Under the pieces are notes generated by a model that worked only from the letters and a program-made list of their open reading frames with translations, was not told the origin of the DNA and ran no database searches. Below, one piece after another: positions 38,581 to 60,862 of a stretch of DNA of 64,000 nucleotides. Location: NCBI RefSeq assembly GCF_013315695.1, contig NZ_CP054353.1; one strand, 5' to 3'. The DNA comes from Escherichia coli (GTDB taxonomy: Bacteria; Pseudomonadota; Gammaproteobacteria; Enterobacterales; Enterobacteriaceae). Made by a program: the position numbers and the translations under genes. The number at the start of each line of letters is the position of its first letter. Positions within the stretch are counted from its first letter, which is position 1.

Positions 38581-38671
38581 TCTATCGTCGGAAAAAGTGT
38601 CTTGTATAAATTGGTGATTTTTCACATAAAGTGTACCTTGTAATTGTGTAATGTTTATGGGGTGTGAGTGC

Positions 38672-39919
38672 ATGGAAAAGAACTACAGAGTTACAACATT
38701 TGTCATGGATAGTGGCGAGCGCTATTGCATGGTAGTGGATCGTGCTTCTGGGCTTCCCATGTATTACCCCACTCTGTTTCTAACAACTCAAATCCGCAAT
38801 AGAGAGGATGCTTTTTCAACGATGTTGGCGGCGGCTAACAACCTGGTTATGTTGTTACGCTTTGTAGAGAGTCGCGACATTGACCTTGAGCAGCGGTTTT
38901 TGACCAAAGACTTCTTCAAGCCACATGAGCTGGATGATCTGCGAGATTTTGCTCAGTGCAAACAAAGAAAGGGGCCATTAACTGTGTCCTCTACCTCTTG
39001 GTTGGCCGATGCGATGACCGATATCGTTGATAACGGGACACAGCATTCCCGGCTAACAACGTTTGCCAACTATTTACACTGGTATGCGATGCATATCTTA
39101 AAGACGACAGAACTGGAAGTTGTCGAAAAGATCAATGCTATGGCGGCGCAGATAAAGACGCGCCGACCATCTAAAAAGCGCAGAAACCACGACTTACAAG
39201 ACAGGTCATTGAGTGATGTTCAATTGGACGCGCTATTTGAAGTCATCCAGCCTAGATCAGAGTTAAACCCTTTCTCAATAGATGTGCAGCGCCGCAATCG
39301 GCTGATGATCTTACTTCTGTTTTATCTTGGCATCCGAGGTGGTGAATTATTAAATATAAGAATACAGGACATAGATTTTAGCGCTAACAGGATCCGTATC
39401 GTTAGGAGAGCAGATGAACAAGCTGACTCTAGAACCAATGAGCCTAATGCTAAAACTAGAGAACGGCTCTTACCGTTGGCTGAATCCTTAGCTCAAGAAC
39501 TGCATAGTTATATCCTTCAAGATCGCCGGAAAGTCAGAAATGCGAAGAAAAATGACTATCTGTTTGTAACTTACAAGAGTGGACCAACTCTGGGAAATCC
39601 TATCTCCAAAGGGGGATATCATAAAATTTTTTCCGTAGTCAGGTCTATATCACCGCAATTGTATGCAGCGACAGGACATTCGCTCCGCCACACTTGGAAT
39701 CGCAAGTTTTCAGAAAGAATGGATGCCATGAATGAGCAAGTCAGCGAGGAACGCCAAGAGCAACTTCGTTCGTACTTAATGGGCTGGAGAGATGGCTCGG
39801 GAACCGCAGCGACTTACAACAAGCGTTTCATTCGGCAAAAAGGTTTTGAGGCCGCCTTGGCATTACAAGCAGGTAACGGCACTAGCTTGCCAGAGGACTT
39901 CAAGGATGACCATGAATAA
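38672..39919 (+). CDS. tyrosine recombinase 1 of 3 (phage-integrase family)
   Basis: Integrase motifs: box-I Arg region LLFYLGIRGGELLNIRIQDIDF, GHSLRHTW (H-x-x-R) and LMGW...TAATYNKRF (catalytic Tyr). Alternative ATG starts at 38651 and 38657. Confidence 0.8.
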   Translation: MEKNYRVTTFVMDSGERYCMVVDRASGLPMYYPTLFLTTQIRNREDAFSTMLAAANNLVMLLRFVESRDIDLEQRFLTKDFFKPHELDDLRDFAQCKQRKGPLTVSSTSWLADAMTDIVDNGTQHSRLTTFANYLHWYAMHILKTTELEVVEKINAMAAQIKTRRPSKKRRNHDLQDRSLSDVQLDALFEVIQPRSELNPFSIDVQRRNRLMILLLFYLGIRGGELLNIRIQDIDFSANRIRIVRRADEQADSRTNEPNAKTRERLLPLAESLAQELHSYILQDRRKVRNAKKNDYLFVTYKSGPTLGNPISKGGYHKIFSVVRSISPQLYAATGHSLRHTWNRKFSERMDAMNEQVSEERQEQLRSYLMGWRDGSGTAATYNKRFIRQKGFEAALALQAGNGTSLPEDFKDDHE

Positions 39920-41444
39920 CCTCTTACTTGGGTTAGTACCAGAACGAATCCGTGCCAGGGCCAATGGCTACTCTTTTCTGTTGTATGACACATCGTGGAC
40001 ATTGGATAGAAATATCACTATTAATCTTGCTGATATTCACCATTACTTGTCAGATGGGACGCTAGATGGCTGCCTGCGTACACTGGCGTTTTATGCATCC
40101 AATCGTTCTTCTTCTCATACAAAAAATATTCTTGAACGGTTTCAGCACATGCTGCGTGAGACTGACGCGAGAGAAATTACTGATACGGTATTGATTAATT
40201 ATCGGTCGATGCTGTCGCCTGCAACAGAATGGTATCTAGCAACCATCCGTGGCTTTCTTCGATCCTGGCACGAACTGGGCTATCCCGGCATCAGTAAGGA
40301 GGTGAACCGCTTGCTAGATGGCTGGACGCTAAAGGGTAATCGTAAGGGGGATGCGGTTAAGCGCATGGATCCTCAAGAGGGGCCACTGACGGATAATGAG
40401 CTGACAGCGTTTAACGAGGGGGCTGTTCGGGCTTATGAAAAGAGCTTAATTACTATAGCTGAGTTGGCTATAGCACTTGGCACCAGTCATACAGGACGTC
40501 GTCCCATTCAGATCTCGCTGCTTCGTGTGGTCGATGTCCTTTGTGGTAAAAATGGAAAGGGAGAGCCCTTCTATGTGTTGAATGTGCCGCGAGCCAAGCA
40601 GCGCAGCAGCTCTTTCCGAATAAACTTCAAACCATTTGCAATATCACTGGAACTATGGGCAATCCTGAGTGCTCAGGCAAGAAATGCGATTGCGCAGGTT
40701 GAAAATCGTTTGGGGTTTGAATTGCAGGAAGATGACCGGCAGCAAATCCCTCTTTTTCCTGATCTTGATGTGTTAGATGCCGTCCAATCTCCTTATGAAT
40801 TCCGCCAACTGCATGCTACCGACAAACTCCACATTCCCGCCGCAGAGATAACCGACACCCTCCAATACATCGTAGAAAAGTCCGACATCCGGTCGGAACG
40901 TACCGGTGAGCTATTACATATCAATGCTCGTCGTTTTCGTTATACCACAGGCACACGAGCTGCCCGGGAAGGCTTTGGCGAGCTGGTGATTGCGGAACTG
41001 CTTGACCACGCGGACACCCAAAACGCAGGCGTTTACATCAAGAATATCCCCGAGCATGTGAAAAAGCTTGATGAGGCGGTTGGCTTCCAATTAGCACCAT
41101 ACGCTCAGGCCTTTGTCGGGGCACTTGTCGATTCAGAGAGAGACGCGCATCGAGGTAACGACCCTACCAGTCGTATTCGGACCGAAATGGGTCAGGGTGT
41201 TGGTACTTGTGGAGAACATGGCTTTTGTGGTGCCAATGTTCCTATTCCTTGCTACACCTGCATGCATTTCCAGCCTTGGCTGGACGGCCCACATGAAGAT
41301 GTCTATCAAGGACTGCTCAACGAACGTGAACGGGTGAAAGAGATAACTGGCGACATCCAGATTGCTGCCGTACTTGATCGCAGTATTATCGCGCTGGCAG
41401 ATGTGATCATGCGTTGTGCAAAACGTCGTGAAGAGCTTAGTTAA
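39905..41444 (+). CDS. tyrosine recombinase 2 of 3, with C-terminal Cys-rich region
   Basis: Start ATG overlaps the stop of recombinase 1 (translational coupling); ARRFRYTTGTRAA ... LLDHADTQNAGVYIK resembles the R/H-x-x-R ... Y catalytic region; Cys cluster CGEHGFCGANVPIPCYTCMHF. Confidence 0.7.
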
Positions 41445-41460
41445 CAGGGAGCAATAACCA

Positions 41461-43494
41461 ATGGCTGAGATTTTCCTGTTTAAGCCAAAGGCTACGCTGA
41501 CAGCAGCAGAAAACCTTGAAGCATTCATATCCCAGTGCCGAGATCAATTGACTGTATTCGGCTCTGATCTCACTTGGGAAGATCCTGTTTGGCCAAACAT
41601 AACTGTATTTGCCAAGTTGGGCATTATTACGAGAAAACCCATACTGGAAGAGACGCAAGACCCTGCTTTCATTGATTTTGCCAAAGCCTATTTCCGTTAC
41701 CAGCAGGGGCATAGCCTCTCTAGGGCAAAGAATGAAAGTAAAGCCCTCCGTGCGGTTGAGGCGGCTTTGCTTCAAGTAAATGGAAACGCAAATATTGATG
41801 GCCTGTCGATTTCTGTGCTGGATGAAGCAGCTGAATTGGCAAAGCATTACTACTCCGATGGCTCCGCATATCATTGTGGCCGTGAGATTGAGCGGCTGGC
41901 TAAGTTTGTAGCTGAAAACCAGCTTGTATCAAGTGCTGTACAAAATTGGGTCAATCCAATTAAACGTGCAGAGGATAAGAACAAAACGAGCAGAAAGGCG
42001 AAGAAAAATAGGGAAGATAAACTTCCGAGTGATATTGCTCTTAATGCGTTGGCGGAAATTTTTGCCAACGACCCAATTCATGAGCGAGACATATTTACAA
42101 CATCGGTTTTTGCCATGTTGATGTCGGCACCTTCACGTATTACTGAGGTGTTAGCACTGCCTGTGGATTGCGAGGTTTTTGAAACGGATCGTGAAGGGAT
42201 AGAACGATATGGTTGGCGTTTTTTTGCGGGGAAAGGCTATGAGGGTGATATCAAATGGATACCCACCGTGATGGTCGGTATAGCTAAGACAGCCGTAGCT
42301 AGAGCTAGAGTGCTCTCTGAAAATGCACGACAACTGGCCAAGTGGATCGAGAAACACCCGAATAAGTTTTACCGCCATGCTAACTGTCCCAGTGTAGCCG
42401 ATGATGAGCCATTGACGATGAAGCAGGTTTGTATGGCGCTCGGTTTTGCACATTACTCTAAAAAGACGTGCAGGTCGTGTCTTGGTAATCGAGGTTTAGC
42501 TAAAGAGGATGGTGTACATACTCTAAATAGCCTGTGGCAGCACACAATGGCGCGTTTACCGGATGGCTTTCCGTGGTTTGATAAAGACAAGGGAATTAGG
42601 TACAGCAATGCCTTGTTTGTACTGAACGTAAATCAGTTCCACGGGAACAGAGGATGCATACCAGTTGAGTTACATAAGCCAACCAATAATTTCTTCAACA
42701 GTGATCTGACGCCTCGTCTGTCCTTGAAAGGAAAACATGCCAGTATCTTTGATCGCCATGGTTACCATGCTGTAAACGGAGAGCCGGTGAAATTAACCTC
42801 ACATCAGGCTCGACACCTGCTCAACACCATTATCCAGCGCGGTGGCCTGTCAAACTTGGAAATTGCCAAGTGGTCGGGGCGGGCAGATGTGAAACAGAAT
42901 CGAACTTACAACCACATGACTGAATACGAACTGGTTGGCATTGCTGAACGCCTTGATCCCACAACAGCGCTATTTGGGCCTGCTGGCGAGGTGGCAAAGC
43001 ATCTGCCCGTGACTATGCAGGAGTTCAATACCTTAGAGCATGCCGCAGTCCATGTGACGGAGTATGGCTACTGTGTGCATGATTACACCATGAGTCCTTG
43101 TGAGAAATTCCGAGATTGCGTCAATTGTACCGAACAGGTTTGCATCAAAGGCGATGATGCTGAAAAGTTGGATCGCATTAAGATACGTCTGGAGAAATTA
43201 GAGCGACTGTTTTTTCTTGCTGACGCAGCAGTGGAAAGTGGTGAGATAGGAACTGATCGCTGGTATCAGTACCACAAGAAAACTGTTACCCGGCTTCGTG
43301 AACTAGTGGCTATTTTAGAGAATCCAGACATTGAAAATGGTGTCCAGATTAAGCTCCGGGGCAATGATTTCAGCCAGCTTCGCCGTGTTGTCGCAAAGAC
43401 GTCTATTGTGGCCATCGAGCAAAAAGGCAAAGAAAGTGAAGAAGCTGTGATGTTAGATGATTTGACAACTTTGTTAGGAGGTGGCCTTGGCTAA
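41461..43494 (+). CDS. tyrosine recombinase 3 of 3 (677 aa), with C-terminal Cys-rich region
   Basis: LTSHQARHLLNTIIQRGG ... WSGRADVKQNRTYNHMTEYE (H-x-x-R-H ... Y); Cys cluster YGYCVHDYTMSPCEKFRDCVNCTEQVC; begins 16 bp after recombinase 2. Confidence 0.75.
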   Translation: MAEIFLFKPKATLTAAENLEAFISQCRDQLTVFGSDLTWEDPVWPNITVFAKLGIITRKPILEETQDPAFIDFAKAYFRYQQGHSLSRAKNESKALRAVEAALLQVNGNANIDGLSISVLDEAAELAKHYYSDGSAYHCGREIERLAKFVAENQLVSSAVQNWVNPIKRAEDKNKTSRKAKKNREDKLPSDIALNALAEIFANDPIHERDIFTTSVFAMLMSAPSRITEVLALPVDCEVFETDREGIERYGWRFFAGKGYEGDIKWIPTVMVGIAKTAVARARVLSENARQLAKWIEKHPNKFYRHANCPSVADDEPLTMKQVCMALGFAHYSKKTCRSCLGNRGLAKEDGVHTLNSLWQHTMARLPDGFPWFDKDKGIRYSNALFVLNVNQFHGNRGCIPVELHKPTNNFFNSDLTPRLSLKGKHASIFDRHGYHAVNGEPVKLTSHQARHLLNTIIQRGGLSNLEIAKWSGRADVKQNRTYNHMTEYELVGIAERLDPTTALFGPAGEVAKHLPVTMQEFNTLEHAAVHVTEYGYCVHDYTMSPCEKFRDCVNCTEQVCIKGDDAEKLDRIKIRLEKLERLFFLADAAVESGEIGTDRWYQYHKKTVTRLRELVAILENPDIENGVQIKLRGNDFSQLRRVVAKTSIVAIEQKGKESEEAVMLDDLTTLLGGGLG

Positions 43495-43906
43495 GCATCT
43501 GGACAATAGAGACATTAACGCCATCGTAAATCTAATTCGAGGATGGAAGGAACCAAAACTGTCCTGGTCAGCAATTTGTGAGGCGGCAGAACCATTGGTC
43601 GGAAAGTTGCCGTCAAGACAGTCCCTTAATGCACATGAGGCAATAGTGACTGCCTATCAAACAAAGAAAGAGGCGCTTAAAGGCCGTGGCCCCAAAAATC
43701 CGCGTCCAGCTAGTTTGAACATTGCAGCCGCGAGGATTGTGAATCTTGAAAGCGAAATCGAAGAGCTTAAGGAAGAGAACCGGAGGTACAAACAACAGTT
43801 TGTGATCTGGCAATACAATGCATACAAATATGGAATGACAGAACATCAACTTAATGCGCAGCTGACAAAGATTGACCGTGAGCGCTCTGATGGAGAAAGA
43901 AGATAG
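43481..43906 (+). CDS. small recombinase-associated protein (141 aa, predicted coiled coil)
   Basis: ORF start overlaps the recombinase-3 stop by 14 bp; charged, helix-prone sequence (LESEIEELKEENRRYKQQF); placement is like TnpC of Tn554-type elements. Confidence 0.6.
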   Translation: MALAKHLDNRDINAIVNLIRGWKEPKLSWSAICEAAEPLVGKLPSRQSLNAHEAIVTAYQTKKEALKGRGPKNPRPASLNIAAARIVNLESEIEELKEENRRYKQQFVIWQYNAYKYGMTEHQLNAQLTKIDRERSDGERR

Positions 43907-43981
43907 TTGCTGAGTACGATATCGAGGGTACATTTCTCTGTGTAGGGGTAGTTATTTACAAAAAAATAGGAGAATAATTAA

Positions 43982-46900
43982 ATGGTCAAACCAAACTGGG
44001 ATAACTTTAAAGCTAAATTTAGTGAGAATCCTCAAGGTAATTTTGAGTGGTTTTGCTACTTGTTGTTCTGTCAAGAATTCAAAATGCCCGCAGGTATATT
44101 TAGATATAAGAATCAATCTGGTATCGAAACTAATCCAATAACCAAAGATAATGAAATTATCGGTTGGCAATCTAAATTCTATGACACAAAATTGTCGGAT
44201 AACAAAGCTGATCTTATAGAAATGATTGAGAAAAGCAAAAAGGCTTATCCAGGATTAAGTAAAATCATTTTCTATACTAATCAAGAGTGGGGGCAGGGGA
44301 GAAAGTCCCATGAACCTGAAGGCGATAAGAACGCTGATAATTATTTGGAAACTGTCGGAAATAGTAACGATCCCAAAATAAAAATTGAAGTTGATCAGAA
44401 AGCATATGAGTCGGGTATCGAAATAGTATGGAGAGTTGCTAGTTTTTTTGAATCACCGTTTGTAATAGTTGAGAATGAAAAGATTGCTAAACATTTCTTC
44501 TCCCTTAATGAAAGCATCTTTGATTTATTAGAAGAAAAGCGCAAGCACACAGAAAATGTTTTATATGAAATTCAAACCAATATAGAGTTCAAAGACAGAA
44601 GTATTGAAATTGACAGACGACATTGTATAGAACTTCTACATGAGAATCTAGTTCAGAAAAAAATTGTCATCGTCAGCGGAGAAGGTGGGGTTGGAAAAAC
44701 AGCAGTTATCAAAAAAATTTATGAAGCAGAAAAACAATACACTCCTTTCTATGTCTTTAAGGCTAGCGAGTTTAAAAAGGACAGTATTAATGAGCTATTC
44801 GGTGCGCATGGCTTAGACGATTTCTCTAATGCTCATCAAGACGAATTACGTAAAGTCATAGTCGTAGATTCTGCTGAAAAGCTTTTAGAACTGACCAATA
44901 TCGATCCTTTTAAAGAATTCCTGACTGTTTTAATAAAGGATAAATGGCAGGTTGTTTTCACAACCCGTAACAACTACTTGGCAGATCTGAACTATGCTTT
45001 CATAGATATTTATAATATAACTCCTGGAAACTTAGTAATAAAGAACCTTGAACGCGGCGAGCTAATAGAGTTATCTGATAACAATGGATTTAGCCTTCCT
45101 CAAGATGTTCGATTATTAGAACTAATCAAAAATCCATTTTATCTAAGTGAATATTTGAGGTTCTATACCGGTGAAAGCATCGATTATGTGAGCTTCAAAG
45201 AAAAGCTTTGGAATAAGATTATTGTCAAAAATAAACCTTCTCGGGAGCAGTGTTTCTTAGCGACTGCTTTTCAGCGGGCTAGTGAGGGCCAATTTTTTGT
45301 CTCCCCGGCATGTGATACTGGAATTTTAGATGAGTTAGTTAAAGACGGAATTGTCGGCTATGAAGCTGCTGGTTACTTCATTACACATGATATATACGAG
45401 GAATGGGCATTAGAAAAGAAAATTTCTGTCGATTATATCCGTAAAGCGAACAATAACGAGTTCTTCGAAAAAATAGGAGAATCACTTCCTGTTCGCCGTA
45501 GTTTTCGGAATTGGATATCTGAACGATTGCTTTTAGATGACCAGTCCATAAAGCCTTTTATCGCAGAAATAGTCTGTGGAGAAGGAATATCAAATTTTTG
45601 GAAAGACGAGTTATGGGTAGCTGTCCTTCTTTCCGATAATTCAAGCATATTTTTTAATTACTTTAAAAGATATTTACTTAGTAGTGACCAGAATCTATTA
45701 AAAAGACTTACTTTCTTATTGAGGCTTGCTTGCAAGGACGTTGATTACGATCTGCTTAAACAGTTAGGTGTAAGTAATTCAGATCTGCTTTCCATTAAAT
45801 ATGTTCTTACTAAGCCTAAGGGAACTGGTTGGCAGAGTGTGATCCAATTTATCTATGAAAATTTAGATGAAATAGGGATCAGAAATATTAATTTTATACT
45901 TCCTGTGATTCAGGAGTGGAATCAAAGAAACAAAGTGGGTGAAACGACTCGATTATCTAGTTTGATAGCCCTAAAATATTATCAATGGACTGTAGATGAG
46001 GATGTCTATTTATCCGGAAGGGATAATGAGAAAAATATTCTGCATACGATTCTTCATGGGGCGGCCATGATTAAACCTGAAATGGAAGAGGTTTTAGTTA
46101 AGGTTCTTAAAAATAGGTGGAACGAGCACGGTACCCCATATTTCGACCTTATGACCTTAATCCTTACTGACTTAGATTCATATCCGGTTTGGGCATCTCT
46201 CCCGGAATATGTTCTACAATTGGCAGATCTGTTCTGGTATCGGCCACTTAAAGAAACAGGCGAACGTTATCACAGTATGGATATTGAAGATGAGTTCGGT
46301 CTATTTAGGTCTCATCACGACTATTATCCAGAAAGTCCATATCAGACTCCTATATATTGGTTACTACAATCACAGTTCAAAAAAACAATAGACTTTATTC
46401 TTGATTTTACGAACAAGACAACGATATGTTTTGCCCACTCCCATTTTGCTAAAAACGAAATTGAAGAAGTCGATGTCTTTATTGAAGAAGGAAAGTTTAT
46501 AAAGCAATATATATGCAATCGTCTGTGGTGCTCATATCGAGGAACACAGGTCTCTACCTACTTACTTTCATCAATTCATATGGCATTGGAAAAATTTTTT
46601 CTTGAGAATTTTAAAAATGCAGACTCGAAAGTGTTGGAAAGTTGGCTTCTTTTCTTGTTAAGAAATACCAAGTCAGCTTCTATTTCTGCAGTAGTTACGA
46701 GTATTGTACTTGCATTCCCTGAGAAGACATTCAATGTAGCTAAAGTACTATTCCAAACAAAGGATTTCTTCCGTTTTGATATGAATCGAATGGTTCTAGA
46801 CAGAACACATAAAAGTTCATTAATCTCCCTCAGGGATGGCTTTGGCGGTACAGATTACAGAAACTCTTTGCACGAAGAAGATAGAATTAAAGCTTGCGAT

Positions 46901-48745
46901 GATGTGCATAGAAATACTTATCTTGAAAATCTTGCCTTGCATTATCAAATTTTCAGGAGTGAAAATGTAACGGAGAAAGATGTCATTGAAAGGCAACAAG
47001 TGCTCTGGGGTATTTTCGATAAATACTATAATCAGCTTCCAGATGAAGCTCAAGAAACTGAAGCCGATAAGACGTGGAGGCTCTGCTTGGCAAGAATGGA
47101 TCGGCGAAAGATGAAAATAACTACCAAGGAGAAAGATGAAGGGATTGAGATATCATTCAATCCTGAGATTGACCCTAAACTAAAGCAATATAGTGAGGAA
47201 GCAATAAAGAAAAACTCCGAGCATATGAAGTATGTAACGCTGAAACTATGGGCAAGCTATAAAAGAGAAAAGGATGAACGTTATAAGAATTATGGAATGT
47301 ATGAGGACAATCCGCAAATTGCTTTACAAGAGACCAAAGAAATAATAAAAAAGCTTAATGAGGAAGGGGGTGAAGATTTCAGACTATTAAATGGTAATAT
47401 ACCAGCAGACGTTTGTTCTGTATTACTGTTAGATTACTTTAATCAGTTGAATAATGAAGAGAGAGAATATTGTAAAGATATTGTTCTAGCATATTCTCAA
47501 CTTCCGTTGAAGGAAGGCTATAATTATCAGGTACAAGATGGGACAACCTCGGCAATTTCAGCCTTACCCGTGATTTATCATAATTATCCAATGGAAAGGG
47601 AGACTATAAAAACAATATTACTTTTGACACTGTTTAATGACCACTCTATTGGAATGGCAGGTGGGCGCTACTCAGTATTTCCTAGTATGGTGATTCATAA
47701 ATTATGGCTAGACTATTTTGATGATATGCAGTCTCTATTGTTTGGTTTTTTGATTTTAAAGCCAAAGTATGTAATTCTTTCAAGAAAAATCATTCATGAA
47801 AGTTATCGTCAAGTAGACTATGACATTAAAAAAATAAATATTAATAAGGTGTTTTTAAATAACTATAAGCATTGCATATCAAATGTCATCGATAATAAAA
47901 TATCTATAGATGATTTGGGAAGTATAGATATAGTTGATCTACATATTTTGAACACAGCTTTCCAATTAATTCCAGTTGATACTGTTAATATTGAACATAA
48001 GCAATTGGTTTCCTTAATTGTTAAAAGATTTTCTACAAGCCTATTGTCAAGTGTTCGAGAAGATAGAGTTGATTACGCTCTTCGGCAGTCTTTCTTGGAA
48101 AGATTTGCCTACTTTACGCTTCATGCGCCCGTGAGCGATATTCCCGATTATATAAAACCTTTTCTTGATGGTTTCAACGGTTCAGAGCCTATTTCAGAGT
48201 TATTTAAAAAATTTATTCTCGTCGAAGATAGATTAAATACTTACGCCAAATTTTGGAAGGTTTGGGATTTGTTTTTTGATAAAGTGGTTACTTTGTGCAA
48301 GGATGGAGATAGGTATTGGTATGTAGATAAAATTATAAAAAGTTACCTTTTTGCTGAATCTCCATGGAAAGAAAACTCTAATGGTTGGCACACATTTAAA
48401 GATAGCAATAGTCAATTCTTTTGCGATGTATCTAGGACTATGGGCCATTGCCCTTCAACTTTATATTCTCTTGCCAAATCTTTGAATAACATTGCCAGTT
48501 GCTATCTTAATCAAGGTATAACCTGGCTTTCAGAAATGTTGTCGGTTAATAAAAAGCTATGGGAAAAGAAATTGGAAAATGATACTGTTTATTTTTTAGA
48601 ATGTTTGGTTAGGCGGTATATTAACACTGAGCGTGAGCGAATTAGACGAACCAAACAGTTGAAAGAAGAGGTCTTAGTAATATTGGATTTTTTGGTAGAG
48701 AAAGGATCTGTTGTTGGTTATATGTCACGGGAAAATATTCTGTGA
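43982..48745 (+). CDS. large STAND-type P-loop NTPase with N-terminal Mrr/PD-(D/E)xK-like domain; candidate Avs-like antiviral sensor
   Basis: 1587-aa ORF, about one third GC. Walker A IVIVSGEGGVGKTAV; Walker B VIVVDSAEKL; sensor-1-like VVFTTRN; N-terminus FEWFCYLLF...SGIETN...IIGWQSKFY...KIIFYTNQEW resembles Mrr catalytic-domain motifs; long C-terminal region of more than 1000 aa. RBS-like GGAG upstream. Confidence 0.75.
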   Translation: MVKPNWDNFKAKFSENPQGNFEWFCYLLFCQEFKMPAGIFRYKNQSGIETNPITKDNEIIGWQSKFYDTKLSDNKADLIEMIEKSKKAYPGLSKIIFYTNQEWGQGRKSHEPEGDKNADNYLETVGNSNDPKIKIEVDQKAYESGIEIVWRVASFFESPFVIVENEKIAKHFFSLNESIFDLLEEKRKHTENVLYEIQTNIEFKDRSIEIDRRHCIELLHENLVQKKIVIVSGEGGVGKTAVIKKIYEAEKQYTPFYVFKASEFKKDSINELFGAHGLDDFSNAHQDELRKVIVVDSAEKLLELTNIDPFKEFLTVLIKDKWQVVFTTRNNYLADLNYAFIDIYNITPGNLVIKNLERGELIELSDNNGFSLPQDVRLLELIKNPFYLSEYLRFYTGESIDYVSFKEKLWNKIIVKNKPSREQCFLATAFQRASEGQFFVSPACDTGILDELVKDGIVGYEAAGYFITHDIYEEWALEKKISVDYIRKANNNEFFEKIGESLPVRRSFRNWISERLLLDDQSIKPFIAEIVCGEGISNFWKDELWVAVLLSDNSSIFFNYFKRYLLSSDQNLLKRLTFLLRLACKDVDYDLLKQLGVSNSDLLSIKYVLTKPKGTGWQSVIQFIYENLDEIGIRNINFILPVIQEWNQRNKVGETTRLSSLIALKYYQWTVDEDVYLSGRDNEKNILHTILHGAAMIKPEMEEVLVKVLKNRWNEHGTPYFDLMTLILTDLDSYPVWASLPEYVLQLADLFWYRPLKETGERYHSMDIEDEFGLFRSHHDYYPESPYQTPIYWLLQSQFKKTIDFILDFTNKTTICFAHSHFAKNEIEEVDVFIEEGKFIKQYICNRLWCSYRGTQVSTYLLSSIHMALEKFFLENFKNADSKVLESWLLFLLRNTKSASISAVVTSIVLAFPEKTFNVAKVLFQTKDFFRFDMNRMVLDRTHKSSLISLRDGFGGTDYRNSLHEEDRIKACDDVHRNTYLENLALHYQIFRSENVTEKDVIERQQVLWGIFDKYYNQLPDEAQETEADKTWRLCLARMDRRKMKITTKEKDEGIEISFNPEIDPKLKQYSEEAIKKNSEHMKYVTLKLWASYKREKDERYKNYGMYEDNPQIALQETKEIIKKLNEEGGEDFRLLNGNIPADVCSVLLLDYFNQLNNEEREYCKDIVLAYSQLPLKEGYNYQVQDGTTSAISALPVIYHNYPMERETIKTILLLTLFNDHSIGMAGGRYSVFPSMVIHKLWLDYFDDMQSLLFGFLILKPKYVILSRKIIHESYRQVDYDIKKININKVFLNNYKHCISNVIDNKISIDDLGSIDIVDLHILNTAFQLIPVDTVNIEHKQLVSLIVKRFSTSLLSSVREDRVDYALRQSFLERFAYFTLHAPVSDIPDYIKPFLDGFNGSEPISELFKKFILVEDRLNTYAKFWKVWDLFFDKVVTLCKDGDRYWYVDKIIKSYLFAESPWKENSNGWHTFKDSNSQFFCDVSRTMGHCPSTLYSLAKSLNNIASCYLNQGITWLSEMLSVNKKLWEKKLENDTVYFLECLVRRYINTERERIRRTKQLKEEVLVILDFLVEKGSVVGYMSRENIL

Positions 48746-48840
48746 TGTAGTTGAAAATAATAATTTTAATGAGAGCTTTTCCAATTTAGGCTCCAGGGAT
48801 TGGAGCCTTTTTATTATCGAAAAGATTAATATCTTATAAG

Positions 48841-49059
48841 TCAATCAGTAAAACGCAGCAAAGCTCGTTGCTCTTGAATGTTCACTCCGTGATAAATTCT
48901 TTGATTACCACATAAATAACAAGAACAAGCACAAGGGGTGCAGTAAATTTTCCCTACAACTTTTTCAGTTTTAGCCAACGCAATTCGATATGTTTTTCTC
49001 TTAGATTTTAACCGAGATATATGATGACGACGCCATGCCCGATTTCTAACCATTTCCAT
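48841..49059 (-). CDS. small basic Cys-rich ORF (72 aa), possible zinc-ribbon protein or gene remnant
   Basis: ORF with RRHHISRLKSKRK and C-x-x-C-x-C...C; lies between the convergent NTPase gene and the 273-aa gene; coding status uncertain. Confidence 0.25.
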   Translation of the reverse strand: MEMVRNRAWRRHHISRLKSKRKTYRIALAKTEKVVGKIYCTPCACSCYLCGNQRIYHGVNIQEQRALLRFTD

Positions 49060-49283
49060 TCACTCCAATTTTCTACCGCGGTGTTATACCGCGCCCGTAT
49101 CAATCTTTGGAGTTCGATATCGATCTGACCTTTCATGAATACCTCGGAATTTATCAATAAAGTGAGTGCTATATCATAGCTTATGGGATGAAAGTTTGAT
49201 ATTTAGCACTTTTCAGCTTTAGGTAAAGCTGTCCTCAATAAAGCTAATTTCTTGTTTATTAATGGAATTTCTATGTGGAAGTG

Positions 49284-50105
49284 TTAGAAATCCTGTTTTA
49301 CTTTATCCATCGTTAAAACTTTACTTATTATATAAGGATCATAATTTCTTATACTCATAAGGCAATTTATCAAATTGGAAACGTGGCTATCATCAGGTAT
49401 AAGTATATATTTAATATCATCGAAAGAAAAACCAATGCCAAATTCAGAGAATTTTTTACTTAAGACGGCCTTCTGGTTAGGTTCCACCACTCGCTCTAAA
49501 TTTAGGCTAGGCCATAAATCGCCAACAAACGGATGCGGTACATATCTCCATTCTTTTTCGTCAGCGTAGATATAATTCTCAATGGTTTTTTCGTTCGTCC
49601 TTTCTAATTTCCCTTTATAATTTTTCATATAGCGTAATAAATTATAAAGGTCAGCGTACTCTTCTTTAAGGCTTTCAAAATACTTACGCTCTTTATTATC
49701 AAGGATATGCCTTTTCGACCATAGCGGAATTAACGCATCCTTTAGTTTTCTAATTCTTTTATTATACTTTGAAAATAATTCACTGCCTTGATTCATGTAT
49801 AGAACGGGATGGAGATCATTTTTCTCAGCCCATTCTTTTGTTAACCCAAATCCAAATTCACCATATTTTCCACTATGATCTTTAATCTGAGAAAGCTTGA
49901 TGTCACAGAATGAAACCATTGGTACTGCGAAATTTCTTCTTCCTTTTACTCCGACTATGCGTTCACGGGCAAGAAATGGTTTAAAATAGAGTTCTGTTAA
50001 AATGCTATAGAATGCCTCTTCATTTTTAGTAAAGTGAAACAACGTTGTTGGATGTAAACTATTAACTGCTTGTATAACTGTTTCTTGGTTTTCTATAGCA
50101 CTCAT
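49284..50105 (-). CDS. AT-rich hypothetical protein (273 aa), possible abortive-infection or defence-associated protein
   Basis: Clean ORF convergent with the NTPase gene; no family identified with certainty from sequence alone (LFHFTKNEEAFYSIL N-terminal motif). Confidence 0.6.
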   Translation of the reverse strand: MSAIENQETVIQAVNSLHPTTLFHFTKNEEAFYSILTELYFKPFLARERIVGVKGRRNFAVPMVSFCDIKLSQIKDHSGKYGEFGFGLTKEWAEKNDLHPVLYMNQGSELFSKYNKRIRKLKDALIPLWSKRHILDNKERKYFESLKEEYADLYNLLRYMKNYKGKLERTNEKTIENYIYADEKEWRYVPHPFVGDLWPSLNLERVVEPNQKAVLSKKFSEFGIGFSFDDIKYILIPDDSHVSNLINCLMSIRNYDPYIISKVLTMDKVKQDF

Positions 50106-52812: not shown

Positions 52813-53136
52813 CTACAGGCGGTGGCGATAATCGCTTGGAGTGCGATCAAACTGCCGACGGAAAACGCGGGAGAAGGTCTGCTGCGAGACATAACCCAGG
52901 TCCATTGCGATATCAAAAATCGGACGCTCGGTGGTGCGCAACTCAACGGCGGCCAGTAACAGGCGGCGTTGGCGAATGTAATCACCAAGTGTCTGATGCG
53001 TCACCGTGCGGAACATCCGCTGTAAGTACCACTTTGAATAGCCTGATTTTTTTGCGACGACATCAATGTTAAGCGGCTGGTCAATATGCTCGTCAATCCA
53101 TGCGATAAGATCCTGAATAATTTTCTGATGGGACAT
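52813..53136 (-). CDS. soxS: superoxide-response AraC-family activator SoxS
   Basis: 107-aa protein MSHQKIIQDLIAWIDEHIDQPLNIDVVAKKSGYSKWYLQRMFR. Confidence 0.97.
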   Translation of the reverse strand: MSHQKIIQDLIAWIDEHIDQPLNIDVVAKKSGYSKWYLQRMFRTVTHQTLGDYIRQRRLLLAAVELRTTERPIFDIAMDLGYVSQQTFSRVFRRQFDRTPSDYRHRL

Positions 53137-53192
53137 AAATCTGCCTCTTTTCAGTGTTCAGTTCGTTAATTCATCTGTTGGGGAGTATAATT

Positions 53193-53210
53193 CCTCAAGT
53201 TAACTTGAGG
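53193..53210. promoter_or_regulatory. SoxR operator in the soxS promoter
   Basis: Perfect palindrome CCTCAAGTTAACTTGAGG between divergent soxS and soxR. Confidence 0.85.
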
Positions 53211-53221
53211 TAAAGCGATTT

Positions 53222-53686
53222 ATGGAAAAGAAATTACCCCGCATTAAAGCGCTGCTAACCCCCGGCGAAGTGGCGAAACGCAGCGGTGTGGCGGTATCGG
53301 CGCTGCATTTCTATGAAAGCAAAGGGTTGATTAGCAGTATCCGTAATAGTGGCAATCAGCGGCGATATAAACGTGATGTGTTGCGATATGTCGCAATCAT
53401 CAAAATTGCTCAGCGTATTGGCATTCCGCTGGCGACCATTCGTGAAGCATTTGGCGTGTTGCCCGAAGGGCATACATTAAGTGCGAAAGAGTGGAAACAG
53501 CTTTCGTCCCAATGGCGAGAAGAGTTGGATCGGCGCATTCATACCTTAGTGGCGCTGCGTGACGAACTGGACGGATGTATTGGTTGTGGCTGCCTTTCGC
53601 GCAGTGATTGCCCATTGCGTAACCCGGGCGACCGCTTAGGAGAAGAAGGCACAGGCGCACGCTTGCTGGAAGATGAACAAAACTAA
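53222..53686 (+). CDS. soxR: redox-sensing MerR-family regulator SoxR
   Basis: 154-aa protein with the C-terminal [2Fe-2S] motif [12 protein letters not shown]. Confidence 0.97.
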
Positions 53687-53820
53687 AGCGCCACAAGGGC
53701 GCTTTAGTTTGTTTTCCGGTCTTTGTCTTTCTCTCTATCCCGCTGGTACACAGGAGGGTTTCCCCCGACGTCAACACACCTCATTCGAGCACGTGGTGGA
53801 GGTTCCGGTTGGTGTTGATG
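53680..53820 (-). ncRNA. ryjA: possible small RNA RyjA, antisense at the soxR 3' end (placement approximate)
   Basis: From K-12 gene order only; a hairpin aaagcgcc-acaa-gggcgcttt at about 53686..53710 could act as a terminator in either direction. No direct sequence proof. Confidence 0.3.
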
Positions 53821-54231
53821 CTTTAATTGTATGTTACCGGCGTTTCTTCGCCAGTGTAAAAGTACACTTTTTAGCCGCAATATTTTTGTCATCTCAGACG
53901 ATTTTTTATCGCAATCCTGAACGGTATACGGTTCGATAACGCTGCAATCTTGCGCATCGACGATAACGTTTGCGCATCAATTGCCTGGTTTTTCATCGTC
54001 AAGACAATAAAAGAGAAAAAAGCAGCAAACTTCGGTTGAAAAAGCCGCTATGATCGCCGGATAATCGTTTGCTTTTTTTACCACCCGTTTTGTATGCGCG
54101 GAGCTAAACGTTTGCTTTTTTGCGACGCACCAATTTGTCGCAAACCTGGAGCAGGAAGATAACGTTTCGCTGGCAGGGGATTGTCCGCCACGCATCTTGA
54201 CGAAAATTAAACTCTCAGGGGATGTTTTCTT

Positions 54232-55581
54232 ATGTCTACGCCATCAGCGCGTACCGGCGGTTCACTCGACGCCTGGTTTAAAATTTCACAACGTGGAAGC
54301 ACTGTCCGTCAGGAAGTGGTTGCCGGGTTAACAACGTTTCTGGCGATGGTCTACTCGGTTATCGTCGTTCCAGGCATGTTGGGTAAAGCGGGCTTCCCGC
54401 CTGCGGCAGTTTTCGTTGCGACCTGTCTGGTTGCCGGACTCGGTTCTATCGTGATGGGTCTGTGGGCTAATCTGCCGTTGGCGATTGGTTGCGCCATCTC
54501 CCTGACGGCGTTTACCGCATTCAGTCTGGTGCTGGGGCAACATATTAGCGTACCTGTCGCGCTGGGTGCCGTGTTCCTGATGGGTGTGCTGTTTACGGTC
54601 ATTTCTGCCACGGGTATCCGTAGCTGGATTTTGCGCAACTTGCCGCACGGTGTGGCGCACGGCACGGGGATCGGTATCGGTCTGTTCCTGCTGCTGATTG
54701 CTGCGAATGGTGTCGGTCTGGTGATTAAAAACCCGCTTGATGGTCTGCCCGTTGCGCTGGGTGATTTCACGACCTTTCCGGTGATGATGTCACTGGTAGG
54801 TCTGGCGGTGATCATCGGCCTGGAAAAACTGAAAGTCCCTGGTGGCATTCTGCTGACCATTATCGGTATCTCAATTGTCGGTTTGATCTTCGATCCTAAC
54901 GTCCATTTCTCCGGCGTTTTCGCTATGCCTTCATTGAGCGATGAAAACGGCAATTCACTGATTGGCAGCCTGGATATTATGGGCGCGCTGAATCCTGTAG
55001 TCCTGCCAAGCGTTCTGGCGCTGGTGATGACGGCAGTATTTGATGCCACCGGAACTATCCGCGCCGTCGCCGGTCAGGCGAACCTGCTGGATAAAGACGG
55101 GCAGATCATCGACGGCGGGAAAGCACTGACCACTGACTCCATGAGTAGCGTTTTCTCTGGCCTGGTGGGTGCAGCTCCGGCAGCGGTATACATCGAGTCT
55201 GCGGCGGGTACGGCGGCGGGCGGTAAAACCGGGTTGACGGCTATCACCGTTGGCGTGCTGTTCCTGCTGATTCTGTTCCTCTCTCCGCTCTCTTACCTCG
55301 TTCCGGGGTACGCAACGGCTCCGGCGTTGATGTACGTTGGCCTGCTGATGCTGAGCAACGTGGCGAAAATCGACTTTGCTGATTTTGTTGATGCGATGGC
55401 GGGTCTGGTTACGGCGGTATTCATCGTGCTGACCTGTAACATCGTAACAGGCATCATGATCGGCTTCGCGACTCTGGTGATTGGTCGTCTGGTTTCCGGC
55501 GAATGGCGCAAGTTGAACATCGGTACGGTCGTTATTGCCGTGGCGCTGGTGACCTTCTATGCGGGTGGCTGGGCTATCTAA
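54232..55581 (+). CDS. ghxP: guanine/hypoxanthine permease (NCS2 family)
   Basis: 449-aa polytopic membrane protein; synteny (yjcD). Confidence 0.92.
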
Positions 55582-55618
55582 TCTTACATAGGATTCTGAA
55601 AACGGGTGGCAATGGCTG

Positions 55619-57044
55619 TAATGCCAGTCAGTTAAGCAACTGACTGGCTCTTTTTCGGGGCTGTGGGGTATTTCCAGGGCCTCTCCTTTACCACTCTCGG
55701 GAAGGCCCTTTCCCTTCTTGTCGGTAATTTCACAAGTTGTCCCATACTTGCAAGATCGCGCATCAGCTCCGGTATACGTCCCGGTGAAGCGCCCTGCAAT
55801 GTCATCAGCATTCTCATCACCATTCCGCATGATTCTGAGAAACTCAGTTGATTCGGCCAGTAACCTTTCAGATGTTCCGCCATTTTAATCATCTGATATC
55901 TCACCAGATTATAAGCCAGTAAGACACCCCACAGCTCTTGCTCCACAAGCTCCGGTTTTTTACTTCTCAGCGTCAGCCTGCTCAGTTGCATCGTCTGTTT
56001 TATCTCCCTGTATCCCAGTTCGATTTCCCAGCGATGACTGTACAGATCCGCCATTTCTCCTCCGGGGAAGCGCATGGCGTCCGTCATCGACGTCAGCAGA
56101 TGGCAGACTTTTCCTTTGCGCGTCACGGTCAGCAGGCGGGCTGTCACTTCATTTCCCAGTCCCGGCCACTTTTTTCGTGCCTGCGGGCTGGTTTTCAGCT
56201 TCACCAGATGATCGCCTTTACCCAGTTTTCTGATCTCTTCATATTGCGCTCCCTTTCTGAGAGGTATCATCCAGTGGCGGTGTTCTCCCGCCAGGCTCCA
56301 GGCATTTAACAGTCCCAGTGAGTAATAACCTTTATCCATTAACGTCAGAGTGTTATCGCCGGTTTGTTCTATAAGTTGCTCAGCAAGCTCATTTTCGCTG
56401 TTCTTCATCGTGCCGAAGGCTGCAGCCGTCAGCAGATGGCTGGTCAGTTCCATCTGGCAGACCATTTTGACCTGCGGGTAGAGCGCCGGGTTCCCGGCAT
56501 GTGTCTGGCGGGGGAAGGCTGCATCGTTCTCTGGTGTATCCGGTGTGCGCCAGAACACACCATCGATGGCCAGCAGGGTCAGGCCGCACCAGTGCGGATG
56601 CGGCGTGGCGTTATGCCAGAGCTGCGCTGTTTTCGTGAACACGCGGCGGACAGCCTCACTTCCCAGGCGCTGGCGGGCCTGAATAACGGCACTGGGGGCA
56701 ACGAAGGGGCGATTGCCCGGCAGCATGATGTCCAGGCGATTCACAATCTGGTGAAGAGGTTCTTTACGCTCAAGCGCCATGCCAACAATACACCAGACCA
56801 TCATTTCGAGGGGAAGACGGCGCTTGCGTAGCGTTACAGTACCTGATTCGGCAAGGCAACGAGAGATGAGTTCGGGGTCGAGGTAATCCCCCAGAGAAGT
56901 CAGTGGGTTACGCAGAGAATCGTAACGGGATACCAGATCAAGAGCCTGTCCAATGTGCATAAAAAAATCCGGAAACAAGTGAGCGTTTCCGGATTCTTAC
57001 ACAGCCACTGGATCGGTCAACTGATCCTTAACTGATCGGCATTA
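55619..57044 (-). mobile_element. IS4 insertion sequence (1426 bp) with 13-bp target duplication GTGGCAATGGCTG
   Basis: Imperfect terminal inverted repeats TAATGCCAGTCAGTTAAGCA / TAATGCCGATCAGTTAAGGA; direct repeat at 55606..55618 and 57045..57057; encodes a DDE transposase. Confidence 0.9.
55632..56960 (-). CDS. insG: IS4 transposase
   Basis: About 442-aa DDE transposase ([16 protein letters not shown]...); the track ORF extends 6 codons further upstream. Confidence 0.9.
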
Positions 57045-57170
57045 GTGGCAATGGCTGCCCGTTTTTATTTTCTCCGCACATTGTGTGAGCTTTTGCGATA
57101 TTCTGAAAAAATGAGAATTCAGGCATAACGCCTTTCTCAGATCATAAAAAACATCGCAAACAGGGAACGC

Positions 57171-58820
57171 ATGGAAATCTTCTTCACCATACTGATAATG
57201 ACCCTCGTGGTCTCGCTGTCCGGGGTGGTCACTCGTGTCATGCCCTTTCAGATCCCGCTTCCGCTTATGCAAATCGCCATCGGTGCGCTACTGGCGTGGC
57301 CGACGTTTGGTTTGCATGTGGAGTTTGATCCTGAACTCTTTTTAGTCTTGTTTATCCCGCCGTTGCTGTTCGCTGATGGCTGGAAAACGCCGACCCGTGA
57401 ATTTCTCGAACATGGGCGAGAGATTTTCGGCCTCGCGCTGGCGCTGGTGGTGGTCACCGTGGTCGGCATTGGCTTCCTTATTTACTGGGTGGTGCCGGGC
57501 ATTCCGCTGATCCCCGCCTTTGCGCTGGCGGCGGTGCTTTCTCCGACCGATGCTGTGGCGCTCTCCGGGATTGTTGGCGAAGGGCGCATCCCGAAAAAAA
57601 TCATGGGCATTTTGCAGGGCGAAGCGTTGATGAATGACGCCTCTGGCCTGGTGTCGTTGAAGTTTGCCGTAGCAGTGGCGATGGGGACGATGATCTTCAC
57701 CGTCGGTGGTGCGACGGTCGAATTTATGAAAGTGGCCATTGGCGGTATTCTCGCCGGTTTTGTGGTGAGCTGGCTGTACGGTCGCTCGCTGCGATTCCTC
57801 AGCCGCTGGGGCGGTGATGAACCCGCGACGCAGATCGTCCTGCTGTTCCTGCTGCCATTCGCTTCTTATCTGATTGCCGAACATATTGGCGTTTCCGGTA
57901 TCCTCGCTGCGGTTGCCGCCGGGATGACCATCACCCGCTCCGGTGTGATGCGCCGTGCGCCGCTGGCAATGCGCCTGCGCGCAAACAGTACCTGGGCGAT
58001 GCTGGAATTTGTCTTTAACGGCATGGTATTCCTGCTGTTAGGTCTGCAGCTGCCGGGTATTCTGGAGACATCGCTGATGGCGGCAGAAATCGACCCTAAC
58101 GTCGAAATCTGGATGCTGTTTACCGATATCATTCTGATTTATGCGGCGCTGATGCTGGTCCGTTTCGGCTGGCTGTGGACGATGAAAAAGTTCAGCAACC
58201 GCTTCCTGAAGAAGAAGCCGATGGAGTTTGGTTCGTGGACCACACGAGAAATCCTGATCGCGTCTTTCGCCGGGGTGCGTGGGGCGATCACTCTGGCTGG
58301 TGTGCTCTCTATCCCGCTGCTCTTGCCGGATGGTAACGTCTTCCCGGCGCGCTATGAGCTGGTATTCCTGGCGGCTGGTGTCATTCTCTTCTCGCTGTTT
58401 GTCGGCGTGGTGATGTTGCCTATTCTGCTACAACACATTGAAGTCGCGGACCATTCGCAACAATTGAAAGAGGAACGTATTGCGCGAGCGGCAACGGCAG
58501 AAGTGGCGATTGTGGCGATCCAGAAAATGGAGGAGCGTCTGGCGGCGGATACCGAAGAGAATATCGATAACCAGCTGCTCACAGAGGTTAGTTCTCGCGT
58601 CATTGGTAACCTGCGTCGTCGCGCCGATGGACGTAACGACGTTGAAAGTTCCGTGCAGGAAGAGAACCTTGAGCGTCGCTTCCGTCTGGCGGCATTGCGT
58701 TCTGAACGTGCTGAACTGTACCACCTGCGCGCCACGCGGGAGATCAGCAACGAAACGCTGCAAAAATTACTGCACGATCTCGATTTGCTTGAAGCGTTGT
58801 TGATTGAAGAGAACCAATAA
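57171..58820 (+). CDS. yjcE: Na+/H+ exchanger family protein (CPA1)
   Basis: 549-aa membrane protein with a charged C-terminal tail; synteny. Confidence 0.9.
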   Translation: MEIFFTILIMTLVVSLSGVVTRVMPFQIPLPLMQIAIGALLAWPTFGLHVEFDPELFLVLFIPPLLFADGWKTPTREFLEHGREIFGLALALVVVTVVGIGFLIYWVVPGIPLIPAFALAAVLSPTDAVALSGIVGEGRIPKKIMGILQGEALMNDASGLVSLKFAVAVAMGTMIFTVGGATVEFMKVAIGGILAGFVVSWLYGRSLRFLSRWGGDEPATQIVLLFLLPFASYLIAEHIGVSGILAAVAAGMTITRSGVMRRAPLAMRLRANSTWAMLEFVFNGMVFLLLGLQLPGILETSLMAAEIDPNVEIWMLFTDIILIYAALMLVRFGWLWTMKKFSNRFLKKKPMEFGSWTTREILIASFAGVRGAITLAGVLSIPLLLPDGNVFPARYELVFLAAGVILFSLFVGVVMLPILLQHIEVADHSQQLKEERIARAATAEVAIVAIQKMEERLAADTEENIDNQLLTEVSSRVIGNLRRRADGRNDVESSVQEENLERRFRLAALRSERAELYHLRATREISNETLQKLLHDLDLLEALLIEENQ

Positions 58821-58836
58821 CGCTTGGCGGTGTAAT

Positions 58837-58872
58837 CGGTAAAAAGGTGCAGTACATCGCACCTTTTTACCG
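58837..58872. terminator. bidirectional terminator between convergent yjcE and actP
   Basis: cggtaaaaaggtgc-agtacatc-gcacctttttaccg hairpin with A/T runs on both arms. Confidence 0.75.
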
Positions 58873-58901
58873 TTGGTCAGGTGACCAGAGGCTAGTGGAG
58901 A

Positions 58902-60862
<1,961 letters not shown>

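Follow-up and report, generated by a model that had tools for sequence, protein, structure and literature searches.

IS4 belongs to the DDE insertion sequences and moves by cut-and-paste transposition. The copy in Escherichia coli K-12 (insG, b4278), the type element of the IS4 family, is 1426 bp long, has imperfect 18-bp ends and carries a single open reading frame (ORF) for a 442-aa transposase. Klaer and Starlinger in 1981, and Mayaux and co-workers in 1984, are said to have described a recurrent insertion site in galT and a site in the pheST attenuator, with a target consensus of roughly AAA-N20-TTT. For the IS4 subgroup, De Palmenaer et al. (2008; PMC2266710) listed the end signature -AATR (their Table 1) and target duplications of 10–13 bp, defined the Y(2)R(3)E(6)K motif, and reported that both arms of the target are strongly conserved. 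Some insertion sequences target extragenic palindromes: IS1397 and ISKpn1 have been found in REP/BIME sequences, and ISRm22, of the IS4 family, in REPs (PMC1525189).

The window, that is, the whole 64,000-nt stretch of DNA that was analysed, contains a complete IS4 copy between ghxP and yjcE. In common with IS1397, ISKpn1 and ISRm22, this copy lies in a short intergenic palindrome after a gene and spares coding sequence; unlike theirs, its target is a unique, gene-specific terminator that belongs to no dispersed repeat family. Both the element and the way it behaves conform to known IS4 biology. What is added here to the preliminary description of the locus is the location of the insertion in the apex of a terminator that fits the target pattern of IS4, the probable substitution of one terminator-like structure for another, a second, apparently independent hit at the same site in an unrelated strain, and the expansion of IS4 in the clade.

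A complete IS4 copy between ghxP and yjcE

The element occupies positions 55619–57044 of the window (minus strand), is 1426 bp long and has 99.7–100% identity to annotated IS4 copies over its full length. Its terminal inverted repeats are TAATGCCAGTCAGTTAAG at the 3′ end of the transposase gene (55619–55636, plus strand) and TAATGCCGATCAGTTAAG at the 5′ end of the same gene, proximal to yjcE (57027–57044, minus strand). They are 18 bp long and imperfect, agreeing at 16 of 18 positions, and carry the -AATR signature; a search for the repeat across the 64-kb window returned two matches only, where 0.02 would be expected by chance. The element is flanked by a 13-bp direct repeat, GTGGCAATGGCTG, detected both with a repeat finder and by reading of the sequence from 55400 to 57300. 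The two copies (55606–55618 and 57045–57057) are 100% identical and are spaced 1439 bp from start to start. For two given positions, a 13-mer would agree by chance with a probability of approximately 4^-13, or 1.5 × 10^-8.

In the preliminary description, a 1426-bp IS4 with inverted repeats and a 13-bp duplication was placed between ghxP and yjcE, 37 bp from the stop of the former and about 125 bp from the start of the latter. Its size, repeats and coordinates were all correct, the direct repeat proved exact on re-inspection, and the measured distances are 37 nt from the end of the ghxP ORF at 55581 to the left edge of IS4 and 126 nt from the right edge to the yjcE ATG at 57171. When the left flank with one copy of the repeat was joined to the right flank, the resulting 587 bp were 100% identical to the uninterrupted ghxP–yjcE spacer of CP033635.1. 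Since the reconstructed empty site is thus identical to a natural sequence, the 13-bp repeat is a true target-site duplication. Its length falls inside the range of 10–13 bp for the IS4 subgroup, around one helical turn, and compares with 12 bp at the K-12 site.

The transposase gene (55632–56960, minus strand) has a stop-free translation of 442 aa of the InsG type. Both Pfam domains detected in it, Nterm_IS4 (3e-33, 114 bits) and DDE_Tnp_1 (8.7e-32, 111 bits), score far above their cut-offs, and the Y(2)R(3)E(6)K motif of the C1 region can be read in the translation. Compared with the MG1655 feature ‘insertion sequence:IS4’, the element differs by 4 SNPs in 1426 bp (99.7% identity), and its transposase differs from K-12 InsG by two amino acids; chromosomal position apart, these SNPs are all that distinguishes it from the K-12 copy. 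A copy 100% identical to that in the window is carried by strain 2452, and the copies at bamD|raiA and pdxK|crr in other strains are within 1 SNP of it. The near-identity to the MG1655 element and the full identity to the strain 2452 copy establish that this is IS4 itself and not a relative. All of the defining features of IS4 that can be examined in silico were found, namely length, inverted repeats, duplication, domains, YREK motif and near-identity. The copy is probably active: the intact ORF, the identical copies elsewhere and the presence of IS4 at 18 places in sister genomes suggest that it is capable of transposition.

The ghxP terminator as an IS4 target

Upstream of the insertion, ghxP (54232–55581, plus strand; guanine/hypoxanthine transporter, named after the RefSeq annotation of strain AF3) is intact as a 449-aa ORF. 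The reconstructed target, GAAAACGGGTGGCAATGGCTGCCCGTTTTTATTTT, forms a hairpin with a 14-bp stem and a 4-nt loop, followed by the U-tract UUUUUAUUUU. The empty site folds at −22.2 kcal/mol (z = −5.3), a stability that no sequence in 200 shuffles matched. As this hairpin begins approximately 18 nt after the ghxP stop, it was assigned as the intrinsic terminator of that gene, so the target of IS4 is the predicted rho-independent terminator of ghxP. The same terminator sequence is present in MG1655. The 13 bp that were duplicated are the apex of the hairpin, which is now split: its left half (AAAACGG plus the left copy of the apex) lies at 55599–55618 and its right half (the other copy of the apex plus CCCGTTTTTATTTT) at 57045–57071, both on the plus strand. 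The right junction has lost the stable hairpin and folds at −7.5 kcal/mol (z = +0.46), no better than shuffled sequence. The left junction runs directly into a perfect 11-bp hairpin at the end of IS4 (55623–55648), followed by TCTTTTT, and this hairpin is kept when the new junction is folded. A terminator scan, the inverted repeat and the junction fold all mark the hairpin with its T-run (55623–55658, plus strand) as terminator-like for transcripts arriving from ghxP, and it probably takes over the termination of ghxP.

In order to place this site among others used by IS4, targets were reconstructed for a comparison set of ten other IS4 insertions, which were picked by identity of the IS and not by similarity of the flanks. 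The duplications at these ten sites are 11–14 bp long. With the ghxP site included, the left arms have A at positions −7 to −4 in 8–10 of 11 sites and GG at −2/−1 in 8 of 11, while the right arms have CC at +1/+2 in 8–9 of 11 and T at +5 to +8 in 8–11 of 11. The resulting consensus, drawn from 11 sites only, is AAAA-N-GG-[11–14 bp]-CC-N-TTTT. At least 7 of 10 arm positions are complementary in 4 of the 11 sites, against 0.5% of control positions in the window. The ghxP site, AAAACGG-[13]-CCCGTTTT, is a textbook fit to this pattern, which agrees with the AAA-N20-TTT consensus ascribed to the early reports on IS4. Its A-tract and T-tract arms around a duplicated core of the 11–14-bp class show no difference in kind from the arm conservation described by De Palmenaer et al. 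(PMC2266710).

Several of the other sites (bamD|raiA, pdxK|crr and yddM|fdnI) lie just past the 3′ ends of genes, in sequences with terminator-like hairpin folds. At the sites within ygeA, bcsG and a phage terminase gene the arms are still present. Recognition appears to depend on the A-tract/GG…CC/T-tract arms and not on a repeat consensus. The bamD|raiA site has been entered in both orientations in different strains: strain 605 and NRZ105822 carry IS4 in the same terminator-like hairpin of bamD, oppositely oriented, with duplications of 14 bp, one more than the usually quoted 10–13 bp.

The ghxP site thus illustrates how the known pseudo-palindromic preference of IS4 steers it into intrinsic terminators with an A-tract and a T-tract, and this steering explains why insertions of this kind seldom harm the genes on either side. 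The papers searched do not list the ghxP terminator as an IS4 site, and a literature search for IS4 together with ghxP, yjcD or yjcE returned nothing relevant. The sole co-occurrence, in PMC12314485, concerns IS10A and a synonymous SNP in ghxP.

The account that we consider very probable is a recent jump of IS4 into the apex of the ghxP terminator, at a site determined by target preference and with small effects on the neighbouring genes. A complete IS4 copy would have transposed into the apex of the rho-independent terminator hairpin, and filling in of the staggered cut in the target would have produced the 13-bp duplication. The site would have been chosen for its fit to the pseudo-palindromic AAAA-N-GG-[11–14 bp]-CC-N-TTTT target, a pattern that terminators built of an A-tract, a GC stem and a T-tract offer naturally. 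The event is recent, and it is limited to a small sub-lineage within a clade rich in IS4, whose genomes have 18 IS4 places. As a result, ghxP is without its own terminator, but its transcripts would at once meet the hairpin and U-run of the IS4 end, and yjcE retains all 113 bp of native upstream sequence. We infer that the consequences for both neighbours are small.

Distribution and age of the insertion

The ghxP–yjcE site is uninterrupted in 5,418 of 5,426 complete E. coli genomes, MG1655 included, and is occupied by IS4 in three: AF3 (a UK blood culture isolate), MSB1_4I (from an Australian rectal swab) and PK6 (from a Cuban pig). Comparison with reference genomes, as the preliminary description had proposed, therefore shows a placement that is far from universal, and the suggestion that it marks a distinct lineage holds insofar as the insertion is lineage-specific. 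It was also right that K-12 MG1655 carries its IS4 elsewhere. That copy (4502090–4503515) lies between yjgZ and nanX, approximately 222 kb from ghxP and yjcE (4278479–4281629).

Over 8 kb, a single SNP separates AF3 from the window and another single SNP separates MSB1_4I from it; both fall within IS4. The private SNP of AF3 is at the window equivalent of 56711. That of MSB1_4I is at the equivalent of 56590, and the transposase of this strain is annotated in RefSeq as a pseudogene with an ‘internal stop’. These sequences show the ghxP|yjcE copy starting to diverge and decay among members of the lineage.

Some IS4 sequence is present in 2,686 of the 5,426 complete genomes (approximately half), with a median of one place among those genomes and a maximum of 32, and in 2,479 genomes a match extends over at least 80% of the length of IS4. 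AF3 and MSB1_4I have 18 IS4 places each. The site is empty in MS 21-1, OZ546925 and OZ546911, which have 13–16 IS4 places and flanks reported as 100.0% identical to those of the window over 4 kb; the next closest flanks, SMS-3-5 among them, are 99.3% identical. As these three genomes are empty despite their identical flanks, the insertion is recent and arose within an IS4-rich clade. Its junction cleanly marks a small sub-lineage associated with humans (the window strain, AF3 and MSB1_4I) within this IS4-expanded clade, and has little significance beyond strain typing.

The IS4 of PK6 has the identical nucleotide position and orientation, and an ungapped alignment with the window stays in register through both junctions. 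The flanks of PK6 differ from those of the window at approximately 1.5–2% of positions, including sites 16–20 bp left of the duplication and 74 bp right of it, and the IS4 copies themselves differ at nine positions. PK6 also has espX5/yjcF downstream of yjcE, a gene which is absent in the window lineage. Given the flank differences close to the duplication, the nine differences within the IS and the different downstream gene content, the most parsimonious reading is apparently that the PK6 insertion was independent. Repeated hits at one nucleotide position would follow from the pseudo-palindromic target preference of IS4. Two events share an orientation by chance half of the time, and the double hit in the same orientation could also reflect selection and not target preference alone.

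Two readings would do away with a recent insertion altogether. Repeats are a classic source of misassembly, and with 18 IS4 places in related genomes a multi-copy element could in principle have been misplaced at ghxP|yjcE by the assembler. There is next to no likelihood of this, and we rejected it: the 13-bp duplication is an exact copy of unique sequence, taking it out together with the element restores the natural site to the letter, both junctions recur in complete genomes from the UK, Australia and Cuba that were deposited as three separate assemblies, and in two of these three this particular IS4 copy has private SNPs. The presence of the insertion in two distant backgrounds, the window lineage and PK6, might instead point to an ancestral IS4 that has since excised precisely from nearly all other genomes. 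Excision of this precision, in which one copy of the duplication goes too, is rare, however, and such a loss would have to account for the 5,418 uninterrupted genomes, for the near-identical relatives that are empty, and for the nine SNPs that separate the IS4 variants of the two backgrounds. Ancestral presence is accordingly very improbable and was likewise rejected.

Possible effects on yjcE, and other features of the window

Downstream of the insertion, yjcE (57171–58820, plus strand) is an intact 549-aa ORF, annotated as a homologue of CPA1-type Na+/H+ antiporters. The 113 bp in front of it (57058–57170, plus strand) are native, contiguous with the gene, identical and in register with the empty site, and nearly identical to MG1655. 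The authors of PMC7876045 regard pauses of the kind they report as promoter-proximal (their Fig. 2a), which in our reading would fit a separate yjcE promoter within the spacer. Consensus scanning of the spacer for a native yjcE promoter gave weak candidates only (7–8/12).

Here the preliminary description found no support, having supposed that IS4 probably displaces or replaces the yjcE promoter and may supply outward-reading promoter activity. All 113 bp, and the duplicated 13 bp with them, stay contiguous with yjcE, so the promoter of the gene is most likely unaffected. The insertion point is at the ghxP-proximal end of the spacer, and displacement, which would affect only promoter or operator elements upstream of the terminator, is unlikely; an upstream activator site or UP element overlapping the terminator or lying beyond it is possible. 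Near the yjcE-proximal end of the IS, the one good promoter-like site, TTGACC-16-AAGAAT with a TG (56993–57020, minus strand; a consensus match only), serves the transposase and points away from yjcE. At that end, neither the standard nor the relaxed consensus scan (at least 7/12) predicted an outward or hybrid promoter. Promoter-like sites on the plus strand between 56950 and 57060 were limited to weak matches of 7–8/12 by the same kind of scan, and the best match in a relaxed plus-strand scan of 56950–57165 (8/12) lies wholly in native sequence and is also found in the empty site. Promoter activation of the type known for IS1, IS2, IS5 and IS10 needs an outward −35 element or promoter at the IS end, whereas none is predicted for the IS4 of the window.

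Loss of the ghxP terminator is the one plausible route to a modest effect on yjcE, as it would remove insulation from plus-strand transcription within IS4, antisense to the transposase gene. In a rival account, along the lines of the preliminary description, the insertion rewires yjcE, either by separating it from control elements or through outward, hybrid or read-through transcription, and has perhaps been retained as adaptive. In its favour, the insulating terminator has been destroyed and its right half left without a stable fold, unrelated strains have been hit twice at the same site in the same orientation, and all three members of the lineage that carry it (the window strain, AF3 and MSB1_4I) have retained the insertion. 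We nevertheless consider it unlikely. The native sequence before the yjcE ATG is kept in full, no outward or junction-spanning promoter exceeds 8/12 and the sole match at that level is native, the transposase promoter is directed away from the gene, and the occurrence of IS4 at bamD|raiA in both orientations means that target preference can explain repeated hits. Neither the low number of carriers (three of 5,426) nor the pseudogene copy in MSB1_4I suggests strong selection. A more elaborate version, which seems to us quite doubtful, is that IS4 specialises in terminators of the bidirectional type and brings a replacement terminator distal to the transposase start, so that the recurrent hits at ghxP|yjcE in one orientation represent a selectable change in yjcE expression and not target preference alone. 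Were this true, insulation upstream would be preserved and the downstream gene would lose its shield. A recent insertion guided by target preference remains the reading that we prefer. The antiporter homologue yjcE is poorly characterised, and a change in its expression would matter little if it were not both measured and tied to a phenotype.

Several other features of the window were recorded. An Rfam scan of 53000–59500 gave no match in the ghxP–yjcE spacer or in IS4. Its only match was the sRNA sraL/ryjA (RF01408, 153 bits) at 53679–53819 on the minus strand, between soxR and ghxP, which is the normal K-12 arrangement. Beyond yjcE, at approximately 58820–58900, the gene yjcF/espX5 (encoding a pentapeptide-repeat, T3SS effector-like protein) is missing between yjcE and actP, where both MG1655 and PK6 have it. 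A second mobile element, a 768-bp insertion with IS1-like ends (GGTAATGACTCCAACTTATTGAT … ATCAGTAAGTTGGCAGCATCACC), interrupts dinF at 21696–22463 and is flanked by a 9-bp duplication, GGTTTTGCC, at 21687–21695 and 22464–22472. It is absent from the otherwise near-identical AF3, and is therefore younger than the IS4 insertion. Finally, the region immediately downstream of ssb (approximately 38670–50100) has the look of a defence island that has integrated there: in AF3, where RefSeq annotates it, the island holds two tyrosine recombinase/integrase genes, two hypothetical genes, a 4.8-kb AVAST type 4 (Avs4) anti-phage gene and an AbiGi-family antitoxin gene.
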